Origin: an uncultured Gammaproteobacteria bacterium
Lineage (GTDB): Bacteria; Pseudomonadota; Gammaproteobacteria; JAURND01
Direction: 5' to 3'
Assembly: GCA_963714975.1 (NCBI GenBank)
Contig: CAVQQD010000003.1
Coordinates: forward strand, 416,001-480,000
Length of the DNA stretch: 64,000 bases
Both the position numbers and the translations under genes were made by a program. Below are positions 9,049 to 55,671 of this stretch, one piece after another (positions within the stretch are counted from its first letter, which is position 1; each line of letters opens with the position of its first letter). The notes below the pieces were generated by a model, which saw only the letters and a program-made list of their open reading frames with translations, did not search any database and was not told where the DNA came from.

Positions 9049-9471
9049 ATGACACAACAATCACAACACATTCCTGTCGCACGTATTTTAGTAACCGAAG
9101 ACAATCGCATGGCCGCAAAAGCCGCGCAAGGTTTGTTCAAAGATAAAAATTGCCACGTTGATGTAGAAGGTTCTGCCACAGCAACGCTCGAACATTTACA
9201 GGATCACTACGATTTGCTGGTGATCGACTTAGGCCTCCCGGATTTCAGCGGCCTCATTCTCGCGGAGAAAATTCGCAATTCTGGCGCCGCACTTGCAGCA
9301 GCCCCGATTGTGATTTTAACCGCCCATGGAGATGAAACGCATAAGGCGCAAGCCAAAAAGTTGGGATTAAATGGTTTTTTGCAGAAACCCTTAACCTCTG
9401 CGTTATGTGATCGATTGCTGTGGCGTTTTGTGCGTATGCCTGTCGATAATAATTATTTTCTTGAGAATTAA
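9049..9471 (+). CDS. Single-domain response regulator (CheY-like receiver)
   Basis: ILVTEDN, DLLVIDLGLPDFSG (phospho-Asp), IVILTA, FLQKP; GGAG SD before ATG9049. Confidence 0.88.
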   Translation: MTQQSQHIPVARILVTEDNRMAAKAAQGLFKDKNCHVDVEGSATATLEHLQDHYDLLVIDLGLPDFSGLILAEKIRNSGAALAAAPIVILTAHGDETHKAQAKKLGLNGFLQKPLTSALCDRLLWRFVRMPVDNNYFLEN

Positions 9472-49279: not shown

Positions 49280-49817
49280 AGAAATTATCAAGGGGAATTT
49301 TTATTTCTTTGATAAGAGCTTATTTATCAAAGAAGTTCTTGATGACACCAAAGTCTTATTAATCACCCGCCCACGACGTTTTGGCAAGACCTTGAATATG
49401 TCAATGCTGCGATATTTTTTTGCCAAAGAAATATGGGGTGAAGCCAATAATCCTACGTTGTTCGATGGCTTGAACATTACTCGTTGCTCAGCAGAATATC
49501 TCCAGCATCAAGGCCACTATCCGGTGATTTTCTTAACCCTTAAAGATGTAAAGGATAATAATTTCGACAATTTCTACACCAGCTTTTGCCAGGTAATTAG
49601 CGAGCTTTATTCAGAGCACCGCTATTTATTAGAGAGCGATAGCTTATATTCTGAGGATAAAGATGTTTATCGGTCTATTCTGGATCAGCAGGCCAGTTTT
49701 GCAAATATGCAAGTTGCCTTAAAAAATTTAACTCGATATTTGTATCTACACAAGAGGACAAAAGGGTGTCACGCGAGCAACTCGCTATACTCCTGTTCTT
49801 CAGAAGGCCAGCCTTAA
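49248..49817 (+). pseudogene. AAA-ATPase-like (PD-(D/E)XK-associated) protein, 3' truncated
   Basis: KFPIGISDF, FDKSLFI, TRPRRFGKTLNMSML, YPVIFLTLK; ends before the IDEYD Walker B motif. Confidence 0.8.
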
Positions 49818-49843
49818 AATCAACAATACTGTGCCAGATTAAT

Positions 49844-49937
49844 GAGATCCCTCGCTTCGCTCGGGATGACGCATGGGGAGTTGCCGGGATGACATTTGGG
49901 GAGTTACCATCCATAGGGATGGCACCGGGGAGTTACC
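49844..49937. repeat. Family-B repeat half followed by three degenerate ~23-bp tandem units
   Basis: GAGATCCCTCGCTTCGCTCGGGATGAC; GGGATGRC..GGGGAGTTRCC three times. Confidence 0.7.
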
Positions 49938-49960
49938 TCCATTGTCGGAATTTACCATTG

Positions 49961-49997
49961 TCATGTGTTGACATGAAAATCTAATTTAGATTAAAAT
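49961..49997 (+). promoter_or_regulatory. Sigma70 promoter with overlapping palindromes
   Basis: TTGACA (49968-49973), 18 bp, TAAAAT; TCATGT-N4-ACATGA and AATCTAATTTAGATT. Confidence 0.6.
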
Positions 49998-50004
49998 ATC
50001 CAAT

Positions 50005-50601
50005 ATGAACAAAGTAATAAAAAAGTTTTTGCCTACCGCTGAAGCTATTCAACGGTTATTGCATCCTTATGCGGAAGTGGTTATTCATGACATTAAGCGC
50101 AACAAAATTGCAGCCATATTTCATTCTTTTTCTAAGCGTAGGGTGGGGGATCCTTCATTGTTAACTCCAGAAGAAATGAGTGGGTTGGAAGATTGTATCG
50201 GGCCTTATGAAAAGCTGAATTGGGATGGTAATAAGCTCAAATCAATTAGTAGCGTGATTCGAGATGAAACTGATCAAGCAGTTGGCTTGTTATGTATCAA
50301 TTTAGACATTTCTAAATTAATTACCATCAGTCAGGGGATAATGACGTTTATGCAGAGTGGCAATCTTATTGCTCAACCCTCCCATTTTTTTAAAGACGAT
50401 TGGCAAGAAAAAATTAATCAATATGTTCATACTTACTTGAGTGAACGCCATTTAAATTTGGAATCACTAAATCGGGATGAGAAAAAAGCTTTGATTGAAC
50501 ATTTAAATAAAATTGGTGCGTTTACTGGAAAAAACGCTGCTGCGTATGTTGCTCAGGTTGTCGGGATATCTAGAGCAACGGTTTACAATTATCTGAGGTA
50601 A
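50005..50601 (+). CDS. YheO-like PAS + HTH transcriptional regulator
   Basis: PYAEVVIHD, LKSIS, LLCINLD, GISRATVYNYL. Confidence 0.88.
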   Translation: MNKVIKKFLPTAEAIQRLLHPYAEVVIHDIKRNKIAAIFHSFSKRRVGDPSLLTPEEMSGLEDCIGPYEKLNWDGNKLKSISSVIRDETDQAVGLLCINLDISKLITISQGIMTFMQSGNLIAQPSHFFKDDWQEKINQYVHTYLSERHLNLESLNRDEKKALIEHLNKIGAFTGKNAAAYVAQVVGISRATVYNYLR

Positions 50602-50603
50602 GC

Positions 50604-51734
50604 ATGAAAATAGCCCCCTTTAAAATTGAAGAATATTTCACCCAATATGAATTTTCAGTGCAGTATATGATGGGATCTTCTGATCCGGAATCTTTTACTT
50701 TGTCAGAAATAGTTGCCATGGCGGATTCGGAAAGTTTATCTTTATGGAATCAGTTGTATTTGGGATATACCGAATACTATGGTCTGCCGTTGTTGAGAGC
50801 TGAAATCAGCCAATTATATTCGAGCTTGGATCAAAATCATATTCTGGTTTGTTCTGGCGCAGAAGAAGCCATTTACATCACCATGCAGGTTTTGCTAAAA
50901 CCAGGAGATCAGGTTATCGTAGTGACTCCTTGCTATAATTCGCTTAAGGAAATTCCTAAAGCCGTTGGCGCGCAAGTCACCGAGTTACCATTGAATTATC
51001 AAAATGATCACTGGTCTTTAGATTTGGAAAAATTTGCCTCTTTGGTCACCAAAAGAACTAAATTGATTATCGTTAATTTCCCCCATAATCCAACGGGGTT
51101 TTTACCCAACCATGAAACTTTTCAAGCGATTGTTGAAATAGCGAAACGGCATAATTCTTATTTATTCAGTGATGAAGTTTTCCGATTGTCCGAGCAAGAT
51201 CCGCAAGATCGATTACCCAATGCAGTGGATTGTTATGAAAAAGCGCTGAGTATAGGGGTGATGTCTAAATCATTTGGATTAGCGGGATTGCGGATTGGTT
51301 GGATTGCTTCTCATCTTAAAAGTTTGCTTCATGATTTTGTATCCTATAAAAATTACACTTCAATGTGTAATAGCGCTCCTAGTGAAATTTTATCATTGAT
51401 TGCCCTACGAAATAAGGAACGGATTTTAGAAAGAATTCAAAACATTACCAAACCTAATTTGGATTTACTGGATAATTATTTTCAGCGCAATGCAGATGTT
51501 TATCAATGGGAGCGCCCACGAGCGGGTTTTGTTGGGTTTCCCAAGTTAAAATTGCAAATAAACATAGAGACTTTTTCCAAAAGATTCATTGAAGAAGAAA
51601 ATGTGGTGATTTTACCTGATACTTTATTTGATTATTCAGATAATCGATTTAGAGTAGGCTATGGCAGAGGTTATTTTCTGGAAACATTAAATAGACTAGA
51701 GGGATTCACCAAGAGATTGCATATGGTTCTTTGA
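50604..51734 (+). CDS. PLP-dependent aminotransferase class I/II
   Basis: NFPHNPTG, SDEVF, MSKSFGLAGLRIGW; the stop codon is supplied by the tnpB element right end. Confidence 0.9.
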   Translation: MKIAPFKIEEYFTQYEFSVQYMMGSSDPESFTLSEIVAMADSESLSLWNQLYLGYTEYYGLPLLRAEISQLYSSLDQNHILVCSGAEEAIYITMQVLLKPGDQVIVVTPCYNSLKEIPKAVGAQVTELPLNYQNDHWSLDLEKFASLVTKRTKLIIVNFPHNPTGFLPNHETFQAIVEIAKRHNSYLFSDEVFRLSEQDPQDRLPNAVDCYEKALSIGVMSKSFGLAGLRIGWIASHLKSLLHDFVSYKNYTSMCNSAPSEILSLIALRNKERILERIQNITKPNLDLLDNYFQRNADVYQWERPRAGFVGFPKLKLQINIETFSKRFIEEENVVILPDTLFDYSDNRFRVGYGRGYFLETLNRLEGFTKRLHMVL

Positions 51735-51774
51735 CATCCTTGTATCTTAATTCTAATCACTCAATGTGGTTAAA

Positions 51775-51960
51775 TATCCAAGGGCACTTGGATAGGGGTA
51801 AATATGCCGGTGACATCCTAAGGCATTAAGCCTGTAGAGGAGATTTTAGCAATTTACCCCGTACTTTATTCATACAGACCGGACGGTATCTTAGGACTTG
51901 AGGTAAATATCAATGATCCTGTATTCACAAGGTTGGTCCGAATAAAGCTATCCAAGCTAT
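51775..51960 (+). ncRNA. Bridge RNA of IS110 element 2
   Basis: Target guides TGACATCCT (51811-51819) and GAGGAG (51837-51842) inside stem GGGGTAAAT/ATTTACCCC; donor guides GACGGTATCT (51882-51891) and ACAAG (51927-51931). Confidence 0.87.
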
Positions 51961-51982
51961 TCGCAACATGTAGGATACTACT

Positions 51983-52948
51983 ATGAAGAAAGCATTTCTA
52001 GGCATTGATATCAGTAAAAATACATTTGATGTAGCTGTGCTAATGGAAGATAAGATAAAAACTCAAAAATTCAACAATAACGAGCAAGGCTTTAATAAAT
52101 TACTTGTATGGCTAAACCAGAAGGAAATCGTGTTGTCTCAAGCTTGTATGGAAGCAACCAGTATTTACGGGCAGGCATTAGCCGAATTTCTTTATGCTCA
52201 AGAAATCCCTATAAGCGTTGTTAATCCTGCGAGAATTAAAGGATTTTCTCAAAGTGAATTAGCCCGCTCTAAAAATGATATTCTTGATGCAAAATTAATT
52301 GCAAGATTTTGTAAGTTGATAGGCCCAGAATTATGGCAACCAACTCCTGAACCGATTAAAATATTACAGCAATGGGTTAGGAGATTGGATGATTTAATCG
52401 CTATGCACAGACAAGAAGAAAACCGATTAGAAGTTTCTGATCATTGTTTAAAGGAGCACATACAAGAGAACATTAGCCACTTAGAAAACAATATTAAGGA
52501 AGTTAAAAATGTCATTAAAAATCACATAAATAGCGATCCTGACATGAAGAAAAAAAGCAAGCTATTGCAATCTATTCCTGGTATTGGAGAAGCAACTACA
52601 GCGCAGATATTGGCTTTTATTGGGAATGTGAGTAAATTCAATAATGCGAAAGAATTGGCGGCATTCGTTGGTCTTAATCCCAAGCAACGACAATCAGGAA
52701 CCTCTATCAATGGTAGAGCTAGACTCTCTAAAACAGGTGATTCGGCTCTAAGAAAAGCATTTTATATGCCCGCTGTTGTCGCCATGAGACATAACCCAAT
52801 ACTCAGAAATTTTTCTATGCGACTAGAAAAAACCGGCAAACACAAAATGGTTATTATTGGCGCAGTAATGAGAAAGCTTGTTCATATGATTTACGGGATA
52901 CTAAAATCTGAAACCGTGTTTGATCAAAATATATTAAAATTAGCTTGA
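51983..52948 (+). CDS. IS110 recombinase
   Basis: [35 protein letters not shown]. Confidence 0.94.
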
Positions 52949-52997
52949 CAGATGAGACGGTATCTCCTCGCCTAAAGGGCGAGGATTCCTACTGCGG

Positions 52998-54206
52998 TTA
53001 CGCAACTTGTGCGCAACTCGCTTCGGTGGGTTCTTGCTTCCTCGAGCGACCTGACTGCGTCTTCTCTCCACAAGCTAGCAAGCGGTGCCCCCGCTCTAAA
53101 ATATTGATCGCGCCAACCACATCGGCATGGTGGCTATAGCCACAACGCACGCACGCAAACTCAGCTTGCGTTTTGCGATTGTCTGCACAAACGTGCTGAC
53201 AGGCAGGACAGGTTCGACTGGTATTTTTCGGATCCACCGCCAGAAAAATGCCACCGTTCCACTCAAGCTTATAAGCTAACTGGCGTCGAAATTCGCCCCA
53301 ACCCTGATCCAGTATGGCGCGATTTAAACCTGCCTTTTGTCTGACCTGGCGACCGTGCTGCTCACAGTTGCCTTTGGCAGATTTCGACATTGCAGCTATC
53401 TGCAAATCCTCAACACAGACGAGCGCGTGGTTTTTGCTAATCGCGGTGCTGGTTTTGTGCAGAAAATCTTGTCTGACATTGGCAATTGTGTTGTGAGTCT
53501 TTTGAACCCGCCTTTGGGCTTTGATCCAATTACGACTAAATTTTTTCTTACGCTTCAAGCGACGTTGATAATGCGCAAGGCGTGCTTGATGTTTTTTGAA
53601 GCTATTCATGGGTTCGACATAGGTCCCATCACTCATCGTAGCAAAACGTGCAATACCCATATCAATACCCACTGGGGTAGTAGCTGTTGGCAAGGGTTGA
53701 CTCTCTTCACGCTCGGTCTGCACTGATACAAACCACAAGCCATTGCATTGCTTGACGATGACATTTTTAATTTTCCCTACTACATCGCGACTGTTGCGAT
53801 AGCGTATCCATCCCAATTTTGGCAGAAAAATACAGTTATTATCTTGATCCAGCTTAAACCCTTGTGGAAAACGAAAACTAGCTGATGAGTGAGCTTTTTT
53901 CTTGAATTTGGGGAAAGCAGCACGGTAGGCGAAGAAGTTTTTAAATGCGCGATCAAGGTCTTTAGTGACTTGTTGCAAGGTTTGGGAGGGTGATTGTTGC
54001 AGGTAGGGCATTTCTTTTTTCCATACTAACAACCAGTGATTCATACCAAAGCTATGGGTAAACGGTTTGTTTTCGGCGTAGAGCTCTTGTTGACGCGCTA
54101 ATGCTAAATTCCAAACCTTACGTGCATTACCCGCAAACTGACTCATCGCGCGTTTTTGCGCACCATTCGGCTCAATACGGAATTTAAATGCTTGCTGGAT
54201 TTTCAT
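52998..54206 (-). CDS. tnpB: RNA-guided endonuclease TnpB
   Basis: N-terminal HTH (AFKFRIEP), RuvC GIDMG / VEDL / HADVVGA, Zn finger CPAC..CVRC. Confidence 0.94.
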
Positions 54207-54284
54207 GCGACTATTATATTCTGGTCTATGCCAAACTCAATACAGTAAAAAGCGAATCCATCACTTATGTGGAGCTCCACATAA

Positions 54285-54461
54285 GATCACCAGCAAATCG
54301 TAGTGATCCTGTAAATGTTCGAGCGTTGCTGTGGCTGAACCTTCTACATCGACGTGGCAATGTTTGTCTTTGAACAAACCTTGCGCGGCTTTTGCGGCCA
54401 TTCGGTTGTCTTCGGTTACTAAAATACGTGCGATAGGGGTGCTTTGTGATTGTTGTGTCAT
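54285..54461 (-). pseudogene. Receiver domain copy 2, truncated at the tnpB element left boundary
   Basis: Near-identical to the 9049 gene up to DHYDLLVI, then unrelated sequence; phospho-Asp lost. Confidence 0.85.
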
Positions 54462-54630
54462 AAAATTCTCCGAGAAATGATTGAATTTGATTTTCTGAAA
54501 GTGTTGCGTAATCAACATGAAAAATGTAGGCAGTGCAGAGGTTTAGTAAGTAATGGCGAAGAGCAATTTCTCGTCATCCCGGCATTCATGCCGGGACAAC
54601 AAAGACACTTCGCCACACCTCACTCCTCTG

Positions 54631-54855
54631 CTACTGCCTACCCTCTTGTAATGAAAGAATGCCACCAAAAAACCTGCCCCAAGCTCCTACCCAGTTCCAT
54701 AACACAGCAAGGACAGGCGAGGAGTGTATACAAGGTAAAAGCCTGTTTGTCCAGGCGCAACAAAGCCGCCTGAATAACAGCAGGTAAAAAAATGAGACAA
54801 ACCTACAGAAAAGAGTTTTACGAAAACTCGTAATGAAGTAAGCTGGACGAGTCAT
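54631..54855 (-). CDS. 74-aa leader peptide, copy 2
   Basis: GGAGGT SD plus ATG; MTRPAYFITSFRKTLFCRFVSFFYLLLFRR... paralogous to 8687-8908. Confidence 0.55.
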   Translation of the reverse strand: MTRPAYFITSFRKTLFCRFVSFFYLLLFRRLCCAWTNRLLPCIHSSPVLAVLWNWVGAWGRFFGGILSLQEGRQ

Positions 54856-55008
54856 GACTGCCGACCTCCGATGAAGGTTGGGGTTATGGAAGTACCCTCG
54901 CAGATGGTTTGGACATCTGTAGGGCGCGGCCTCAGGTGCGTGAGCATCTGAGGTTTCAGTATTATTCAACGGCTTTTGGTTAAATGCAAACTTTTTCTTA
55001 AAAAAAGC

Positions 55009-55671
55009 TTATTTGATTTTTTTCAACAAATAAGCGCATTCATAAAGGTCATGAATTTTTCTTGCCACCCAATGGGACGGAATCTCAGTAATGAACTCTT
55101 TCTCTAGTTGCGTCACACTAAAGTGACTATTAAAAAATAATTTGACATCTTCATATGGAGTAGAAAAGGGAGGTTCCGCGACGTCCGGGGCGCCATGTTC
55201 AAAAACTATCAGTAACATTTTACTATTTAGAGGGATAACAGTTTTTAACCAATTAATATACTGGCTGCGTAATGTTTTGGGTGGTAATGCAGTTAAAGAG
55301 CCTCTATCGTACACGGCCTTAATTTCTGAAAGATGTTGAGAAGTTAAATCAAACAAATCTCCATGGTAAAGGGTACAAGATGCATTTTGATATATTTGGA
55401 AAGAATTATCTTTAAGCTGAGTGATATCAAGTTTGTTTTCTTTAAGAAAATCAGAAATGGCAATAGGGCTTATTTCTACGCCGATTACTCGTTGATTTTG
55501 TTGCATTAGCCAGGTCATGTCTACGCTTTTTCCACACAAGGGAACAAAAACCTTTTCCTGGCTTTGTAGATCTAGAGTTTTAAAATGTTTAATTAGAAAT
55601 CGATGTGGAGTAAGTTGATTAAAAGGGATATTTCCTACTTCCCAACGATTTAGCCAATATTTTTTATCCAT
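55009..55671 (-). CDS. Thiopurine S-methyltransferase family protein
   Basis: YWLNRW, VFVPLCGKSVDM, GVEIS, GDLF, VYDRGSL, PPFS. Confidence 0.9.
   Translation of the reverse strand: MDKKYWLNRWEVGNIPFNQLTPHRFLIKHFKTLDLQSQEKVFVPLCGKSVDMTWLMQQNQRVIGVEISPIAISDFLKENKLDITQLKDNSFQIYQNASCTLYHGDLFDLTSQHLSEIKAVYDRGSLTALPPKTLRSQYINWLKTVIPLNSKMLLIVFEHGAPDVAEPPFSTPYEDVKLFFNSHFSVTQLEKEFITEIPSHWVARKIHDLYECAYLLKKIK

Follow-up and report, generated by a model that had tools for sequence, protein, structure and literature searches.

The closest described systems to the locus considered here are the IS110-family insertion sequences (ISs) IS621 and ISCro4, in which a recombinase is guided by a bridge RNA that is encoded in the 5' non-coding end of the element. 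According to Durrant et al. (PMC11208160; this and the other sources given by accession or DOI are cited from their accessible parts), the left target guide (LTG) of the bridge RNA reads as the top strand of the left target (LT) plus core (9 nt), the right target guide (RTG) is complementary to core plus right target (RT), and the donor loop, with its left and right donor guides (LDG and RDG), follows the same logic. In addition, handshake guides and their covariation in IS621 were described in PMC11208158. Here, we report on a 1225-bp IS110-family element at positions 51741 to 52965 (plus strand) of a stretch of 64,000 nucleotides from an uncultured gammaproteobacterium, hereafter the window, which corresponds to G000:C3:416001-480000 of the host genome G000 (2.56 Mb), in which all copies and targets were counted. 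The element shares with IS621/ISCro4 the domain architecture, the catalytic residues, the CT core, a putative promoter rebuilt at the circle junction, and a 5' non-coding bridge RNA comprising a 5' stem-loop, a target loop (with a 9-nt LTG that includes the core, and an RTG) and a donor loop. In contrast to IS621, its RTG apparently comprises 6 nt (core plus four) instead of 4 nt, and its natural target is not a repetitive extragenic palindrome (REP) but the right end (RE) of a TnpB-encoding IS200/605 element, with the hairpin on the RT side. The best explanation of the locus as a whole, to which we assign a probability of about 0.85, is an IS621-like IS110 element for which the TnpB right end serves as programmed natural landing pad.

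Other members of this recombinase family share individual aspects of such target use. The DEDD-transposase ISs IS4321 and IS5075 reportedly target, and thereby split, the conserved end of another transposon. They are said to belong to the IS1111 group, with the guide RNA located downstream of tnp and with subterminal inverted repeats (IRs), and to target the IR of a DDE transposon, whereas the target described here is the end of a single-strand transposon that also encodes a guide RNA. Hence, the suggestion of an initial annotation, made from the sequence alone, that this target class had not been described stands in so far as no report of it was found in the accessible literature, but is qualified by this reported precedent for another transposon's end as a target. 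ISPpu10, ISPpu9, ISPa11 and other REP-targeting IS110-family elements resemble the present element in that their target is repeated, hairpin-associated and host-neutral; REP targets, on the other hand, are stand-alone repeats mobilised by REP-associated tyrosine transposases, while in the present case a coding TnpB element provides the repeat as one of its functional ends. That invaded element in turn resembles ISDra2-type TnpB elements in its full-length TnpB homology, in an RE with subterminal hairpin and conserved terminal, and in the presence of a Y1 TnpA in the genome, but differs from them in being TnpB-only (IS1341-like) and in that its predicted omegaRNA lacks an Rfam match. As far as the accessible parts of the sources go (PMC11208160 and PMC11187229 among them), the known natural targets of the IS110 family are REPs, attC sites, IRs of the Tn21 family and short linear sites. 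No IS200/IS605 or TnpB end was found as an IS110 target in the accessible parts of the literature, including PMC11208160, PMC11187229, PMC11208158, PMC1525189, 10.64898/2026.08.14.744561, 10.64898/2026.03.19.712850 and PMC13626964, of which the supplementary natural-target tables (e.g. of PMC11208160) could contain such cases. The mechanism is the known bridge-RNA mechanism and not surprising as such; what is new is the natural target class.

The IS110 element is bounded by the CT core, with CT preceding base 1 and CT forming its last two bases, and this short core flanks all four full copies in the genome on both sides without target duplication. Its recombinase (321 aa, 51983 to 52948, plus strand) comprises the N-terminal RuvC-like DEDD domain (DEDD_Tnp_IS110, PF01548, E 3.7e-24) and the C-terminal Tnp domain (Transposase_20, PF02371, E 9.5e-29), and matches the solved structures of ISCro4 (9t56, E 3.4e-73) and IS621 (8wt6, E 1.9e-71) over its full length. 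In a phmmer alignment, D9, E57, D99, D102 and S238-G239 stand opposite D11, E60, D102, D105 and S241-G242 of IS621, so that all five of the catalytic residues named as essential in PMC11208158 (D11, E60, D102, D105 and S241) are kept. The recombinase open reading frame (ORF) is preceded by 242 nt and followed by 17 nt of non-coding DNA, and neither terminal nor subterminal IRs were found at the ends of the element; a long upstream non-coding end without subterminal IRs separates the IS110 group from the IS1111 group (PMC11187229). The right end of the IS110 element (52945 to 52965, plus strand) carries TTGACA as -35 motif (52945-50) together with the left donor and core (52956-65). When the circle junction is computed, TTGACA is followed by a 17-nt spacer and by TATCTT (51743-48), which equals TATAAT at four of six positions; a promoter and terminator scan of the inserted state yielded sites that were no more frequent than in shuffles. 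As a whole, 51741-52965 represents an active-looking insertion sequence of the IS110 group.

The 242-nt non-coding end contains a bridge RNA of the IS621 type. Folding of 51771-51960 gives a 5' stem-loop followed by two modules of stem, internal loop and hairpin (z = -2.9 against shuffles), and RNAalifold recovers both modules from 19 sequences, i.e. the window element, a metagenome locus (L080) and 17 cyanobacterial relatives, with double (compensatory) changes in 22 of 40 pairs. In the minimum free energy fold, the 5' stem-loop occupies 51774 to 51794 and the target-binding loop 51795 to 51860 (both plus strand), the latter with an outer stem formed by GGGGTAAAT (51795-51803) and ATTTACCCC (51852-51860) and an inner hairpin at 51821-51833. 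Within this loop, the LTG TGACATCCT (51811-51819, plus strand) equals the 9 nt preceding the element, and the RTG GAGGAG (51837-51842, plus strand) is the complement of CT plus the CCTC that follows it. The donor-binding loop (approximately 51876 to 51938, plus strand), recognised from the fold and the guide matches, contains the LDG GACGGTATCT (51882-51891, plus strand), which is identical to the final 10 nt of the element (52956-52965), and the RDG ACAAG (51927-51931, plus strand), which is reverse-complementary to CT joined to the initial three nucleotides (TGT) of the left end. The handshake-guide positions are taken by AT (51843-44) after the RTG and by GT (51932-33) after the RDG; the first base of each, A and G, respectively, is complementary to position 7 of the donor (T) and to position 7 of the target (C), in agreement with the covariation described for IS621. 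The agreement between guides and occupied site is hardly a matter of chance: among the 288,917 CT dinucleotides on both strands of the genome, 399 have their 7+2-nt left side within the 242-nt non-coding end, and a single one combines the 9-mer with the 6-mer right guide at a distance of at most 40 nt, the chance expectation being about 3 in a million per site. An Rfam scan of 49500-55500 at E <= 1 returned no bridge-RNA or omegaRNA family and one chance match only. Overall, these data support the assignment of 51741-52965 to the IS110 group and of its bridge RNA to the IS621 type, with guides that specify the occupied site.

The occupied site itself belongs to a TnpB-only IS200/605 element (family 1 of the genome), whose body extends from 52966 to 54260 on the minus strand, as determined by copy comparison, with an approximate left-end (LE) boundary. 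Its intact tnpB gene (402 aa, 52998 to 54206, minus strand) encodes the Pfam domains OrfB_IS605, Cas12f1-like_TNB and HTH_OrfB_IS605 and matches the TnpB of ISDra2 (PDB 8h1j/8bf8) over residues 5-380 with E 1.6e-43; the presumed omegaRNA scaffold would lie at approximately 52966-53150 on the same strand. Removal of 51741-52965 joins TTGACATCCT (51731-40) to CCTCGCCTAAAGGGCGAGGATTCC (52966 onwards), which on the minus strand restores a hairpin, starting 13 nt past the tnpB stop codon, followed by a terminal that ends in GGATGTCAA. Hence, the IS110 element is inserted 10 nt inside the RE, between the RE hairpin and the terminal GTCAA. The subterminal hairpin (CCTCGCC..GGCGAGG, 52966 to 52984, minus strand), whose first four nucleotides CCTC constitute the RT, has remained beside tnpB, and the detached terminal 10 nt (51731 to 51740, minus strand; TTGACATCCT on the plus and AGGATGTCAA on the minus strand) correspond to the LT TGACATC plus the CT core. 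As far as this reconstruction is concerned, the initial annotation was accurate throughout: its insertion site, its identification of the site as the RE of a TnpB element and of the inserted DNA as an IS110 element with an IS621-type bridge RNA, its four guides, now placed in a two-loop fold, and its recomputed circle-junction promoter were all recovered.

Comparison of copies corroborates an RE layout of the IS200/IS605 type, without inverted repeats, which reads GGAAT, hairpin and AGGATGTCAA on the minus strand. Ten family-1 RE-side matches were found in the genome, namely seven complete REs and three diverged or partial remnants, the outer flanks of which diverge directly beyond GTCAA (TTGAC on the plus strand). 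The hairpin motif occurs at six loci, comprising five family-1 REs and one diverged RE-like site, and the fold of an unoccupied family-1 copy contains the terminal hairpin (z = -1.7). Y1 tnpA genes (PF01797) are present in three copies, all of which belong to a second IS605 sub-family that shows the same GGAAT-hairpin-AGGATGTCAA layout with another hairpin; one of them (C2:659197-659559) is free of stops, and the other two (C2:509016-509378 and C1:106334-106696) each contain one in-frame TAG. At least four IS200/605 RE sub-families combine the common terminal TTGACATCCT with different hairpins (e.g. C2:507709, C2:662375, C2:1165290 and C3:647112), and none of these is occupied by IS110. Moreover, either TTGACATCCT or TTGAAATCCT is kept as terminal by related TnpB elements that occur in three further genomes from the taxonomic family of the host. 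The left half of the IS110 target is therefore the conserved terminal of the victim, while the right half, the foot of the hairpin, specifies the sub-family.

Four full copies of the IS110 element (cp1 to cp4, 99-100% identity), a truncated copy (cp5) and a 30-nt left-end remnant (C2:270049) are present in the genome. Three of the full copies, cp1, cp2 and cp3, reside between TTGACATCCT and CCTCGCC in three TnpB elements with different outer flanks, and both cp5 and the remnant are placed after TTGAC[T/A]TCCT, which amounts to RE junctions on the left side in five of six cases and on the right side in three of four. After in silico removal of the four IS copies, the perfect 13-mer TGACATC-CT-CCTC occurs exactly three times in the genome, namely at the three occupied REs; all three perfect targets are thus REs of TnpB elements and none is a stand-alone REP. 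The 13-mer, which straddles the point where the conserved terminal AGGATGTCAA meets the foot of the hairpin, is confined to TnpB-only IS200/605 REs of this genome, and this confinement identifies the TnpB right end as the natural landing pad for which this IS110 lineage is programmed. IS110 insertions were absent from the single site with one mismatch and from all 47 sites with two mismatches, including family-2 REs that have a perfect left half and another right half. Position 5 of the LTG is polymorphic (A: cp1, cp2; T: cp3, cp4, cp5), and the same position varies among the REs (A, T or G): the A-allele copies cp1 and cp2 follow A-type terminals and the T-allele copy cp5 follows a T-type terminal, with the T-allele copy cp3 located at an A-type site.

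Two of these traces show further peculiarities. At C2:270049, about 30 nt of the IS110 left end directly follow TTTGACATCCT and give way to unrelated sequence, which constitutes a sixth trace of RE-terminal insertion. Copy cp5 (G000:C1:90926-91636; L005:1043-1969, minus strand) contains a 308-aa chimeric ORF made up of the IS110 DEDD domain and a Transposase_31 (YhgA-like) segment, indicating a rearrangement at IS position 711.

Relatives of the element extend this picture beyond the host genome. At the metagenome locus L080, an IS110 element with 76% aa identity in the recombinase and 81% nt identity overall is inserted at this very position in the RE of a TnpB element that is itself intact and whose protein is 49% identical to that of the window; the RTG of the relative reads GGGGAG where the RE reads CT followed by CCCC, and its LTG TGACTTCCT faces the site TGACGTCCT. 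In sequencing run X4, one contig joins an IS110 right end that is 95-99% alike to an RE hairpin of the family-2 type at the same position. In more distant relatives, most of them cyanobacterial and with at most 56% aa identity, the donor loop is conserved together with the ends, which start with TGTATCTT and terminate in GACAGTATCT; in 14 cyanobacterial relatives, LDG and right end alike read GACAGTATCT, where both read GACGGTATCT in the window element, a compensatory change. Among 15 aligned relatives, all 15 combine the RTG GTAG with a right flank that starts with AC, and in 10 of these the LTG CCCGCCCCT matches the left flank directly before the TGTATCTT left end. Since these distant relatives have other target guides, which match their own flanks away from tnpB, RE targeting is a property of the sub-clade that was reached by natural reprogramming. 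In four of the 15 (L026, L027, L031 and L061, all cyanobacterial) the best upstream LTG match precedes AC instead of the left end, which looks like an unoccupied target near the inserted copy or a longer left end. A tblastn search with the window TnpB against the first 50 related loci gave one further weak match (L069, E 2e-4), a plasmid collection yielded four records only, with partial matches at 60-80%, and viral contigs scanned with a 23-nt bridge-RNA stretch gave no match.

In summary of these comparisons, the right end is supported as a recurrent multicopy landing pad of the IS110 lineage, in line with the initial annotation: three of four full copies, five of six left junctions and L080 conform to it. 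Two further expectations of that annotation were borne out in part. Insertion of the other copies at REs applies to cp1 to cp3, cp5, the remnant and L080 but not to cp4, and covariation of guides with RE variants is seen in the RTG of L080, GGGGAG opposite CCCC, and to some extent in the LTG, which is mismatched in cp3 and L080. Single-base guide changes retarget the element to right-end variants, and the landing pad exists in many copies, owes its spread to another transposon and does no harm to the host.

Several observations weigh against a programmed landing pad of this kind. One of the four full copies, cp4 (C2:1202801), interrupts an unrelated ORF of unknown function, so that targeting is not absolute; its site matches the guides at 10 of 13 positions, with three distal LT mismatches, and agrees with them in the six LT bases next to the core, in the core itself and throughout the four bases of the RT. 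Likewise, occupancy is not simply saturating, because the RE with one mismatch (C3:268402) is empty, and so are two others that have CCCC on the right but agree with the T-allele LTG at every position. The LTG TGACTTCCT of cp3 and L080 faces A or G in the site, which makes the LTG imperfect in two of five assessable RE insertions. Variation is not concentrated in the 13-nt target (variable columns 2/13 versus 80/1240, P = 0.20), and cp1 and cp2 group together against cp3 in the single-nucleotide polymorphisms (SNPs) of the IS110 element exactly as in those of the TnpB side, as movement of a composite would give. Beyond the host genome, X4 contributes a single contig of low depth, of which 43 nt lie on the IS side; a TnpB hidden Markov model built from four sequences matched L080 alone among 75 related loci with up to 2.5 kb of flank; and the targets of relatives with at most 56% aa identity are others, e.g. 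a REP-like hairpin in L046, or CCCGCCCCT followed by AC. RE targeting is thus no habit of the family as a whole. Eight other genomes of the family, which are the rest of the order sampled, lacked a match to the recombinase, and the DNA of the element matched no other genome among 400 scored from the class. Finally, the damage to tnpB in occupied copies, considered below, does not differ significantly from that in unoccupied ones. A mutational scan of ISPpu10, in which distal LTG mismatches were tolerated and the RT interface was rigid (10.64898/2026.03.19.712850), shows a pattern of tolerance that fits both cp4, which deviates at three distal LT positions, and the vacancy of REs that are altered in the RT. 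Contigs of four sequencing runs that cover parts of the stretch contained no IS-spanning empty-site joint, which proves nothing either way.

For the programmed landing pad, the following cycle can be proposed by analogy with the IS621 model. Circular excision would join the right and left ends of the element and thereby create a sigma-70-type promoter, from which a bridge RNA of approximately 180 nt would be transcribed out of the left non-coding end. Its donor loop is predicted to pair with the element's own junction GACGGTAT-CT-TGT and its target loop with TGACATC-CT-CCTC. The resulting 1.2-kb insertion would part the RE hairpin from the TCAA cleavage site and the omegaRNA scaffold from the flanking guide, leaving the hairpin with tnpB and moving AGGATGTCAA together with the flank 1.2 kb away. 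In IS608, TnpA is said to need the hairpin, a GAAT-type guide and the TCAA cleavage site together, within a few nucleotides, and the guide of TnpB reportedly starts immediately beyond the RE terminal. Given both separations, an invaded copy should lose TnpA-mediated excision as well as TnpB homing until the IS110 element excises precisely. According to the accessible literature, IS110 elements leave no scar when they excise, but do so with lower efficiency than they insert, so that reversal would be possible in principle.

A neutral safe harbour, i.e. a repeated and harmless site whose occupation leaves the invaded TnpB element functionally unaffected, is a possible though rather doubtful alternative to this loss of function. 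It could come about if 3' processing or an internal promoter of the omegaRNA made the last 10 nt dispensable, or if a TCAA-like motif of the IS110 right end (ending in CATCTGTCAA on the minus strand) acted as a substitute; in fact, this right end has TGTCAA on the minus strand 15 nt past the junction. The intact TnpB proteins of the window (402 aa) and of L080 agree with such neutrality, which is opposed by the established position of the TnpB guide beyond the RE terminal, now 1.2 kb from the scaffold. Decay of the genes points in the same direction as the latter, in that tnpB is intact in four of four unoccupied full-length elements and in one of three occupied ones, where cp3 shows a 13-bp deletion plus single-base insertions and cp2 an internal deletion; with two of three against none of four disrupted, the difference is not significant (hypergeometric P = 5/35 = 0.14, calculated by hand), which is compatible with the safe harbour.

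The programmed landing pad could also be extended to a specialised hyperparasite, in which this IS110 lineage co-evolves with TnpB/IS200-605 elements, RE variants represent escape alleles that are tracked by bridge-RNA alleles, and each insertion reversibly silences one RNA-guided nuclease locus by severing its guide from the scaffold; we consider this unlikely. Escape alleles in the RE would then be A, T or G at LT position 5, CCTC versus CCCC at the foot of the hairpin, and a change of the core from CT to TG, and the tracking guides would be the LTG with A or T at that very position and the RTG with GAGGAG here versus GGGGAG in L080. Such an arms race is without statistical support, as the 13-nt target is not enriched in variable sites (see the comparison of columns above).

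Composite movement offers a different account of the three occupied REs in this genome, namely one IS110 insertion into one RE, followed by copying of the 2.5-kb composite by TnpA in trans, so that the three would go back to a single event. The composite is bounded exactly by the ends of the TnpB element, an intact Y1 TnpA with matching RE layout exists in the genome, and cp1 plus cp2 are set apart from cp3 in both IS110 and RE-side SNPs. Nevertheless, congruent grouping of three copies has a chance of 1 in 3, and the 1.2 kb between RE hairpin and TCAA site conflict with the spacing of a few nucleotides that the IS608 model requires. Moreover, cp5 and the remnant at C2:270049 lie at RE terminals with other variants and flanks, the insertions of L080 and X4 are found in different RE families, with a covarying RTG in L080, and the bridge RNA itself specifies the site. 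Composite movement could therefore explain cp1 to cp3, but not cp5, the remnant, L080, X4 or the guide match, and appears quite improbable.

Protein-led choice of a REP-like hairpin with incidental guide-like matches would agree with the hairpin next to the target, with the frequent insertion of IS110-family members beside hairpins (REP) and with the enhancement of ISPpu10 integration by a target stem-loop (10.64898/2026.03.19.712850), but is exceedingly improbable in view of the double match (chance about 3e-6 per site), the covariation of the RTG with the RE variant in L080 and of the LDG with the right end across relatives, the vacancy of REs with the same left half and other hairpins, and the insertion of cp4 at a site which has no hairpin but agrees with the guides next to the core. 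In its purely structural form, protein-based hairpin choice is ruled out by guide covariation and cp4.

With the programmed landing pad, a natural target class is added for bridge-RNA recombinases, i.e. the functional end of another RNA-guided transposon, and two mobile systems that are both RNA-guided can be in direct conflict within a single genome. Natural retargeting is achieved by one or two guide bases, as seen for GAGG versus GGGG in the RTG (L080) and for A versus T at LTG position 5. Since the landing site is constrained by the TnpA and omegaRNA functions of the victim, it provides a stable pad across genera. In addition, the occupied and unoccupied RE variants of one genome constitute a small natural specificity data set on tolerated mismatches. 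If the proposed silencing holds true, an IS110 insertion would represent a reversible switch on TnpB homing.

The surroundings of the nested elements deserve a few further remarks. An aminotransferase class I/II ORF (50604-51734) ends with a TGA stop (51732-51734) that falls within the TnpB-element terminal TTGAC, from which it follows that the TnpB element sits at the very 3' end of the aminotransferase gene and that the stop is part of the element; transcription of the gene continues into the bridge-RNA region of the IS110 element. On the opposite side, a perfect 22-nt palindrome (54261-54285) immediately adjoins the apparent left end of the TnpB element on its outer side and overlaps the end of an 85-aa ORF (54261-54518, minus strand), and the next 115 nt (54285-54400) recur at 97% identity at G000:C3:425110-425225 (approximately 9110-9225 of the window). 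The TnpB copies carry two different LE-proximal modules, of which that of the other copies is common over at least 50 nt. Further upstream in the window, the intergenic stretch 49850-49960, which precedes a YheO-like PAS/HTH gene, contains several copies of a GGGGAGTT[A/G]CC-like motif.

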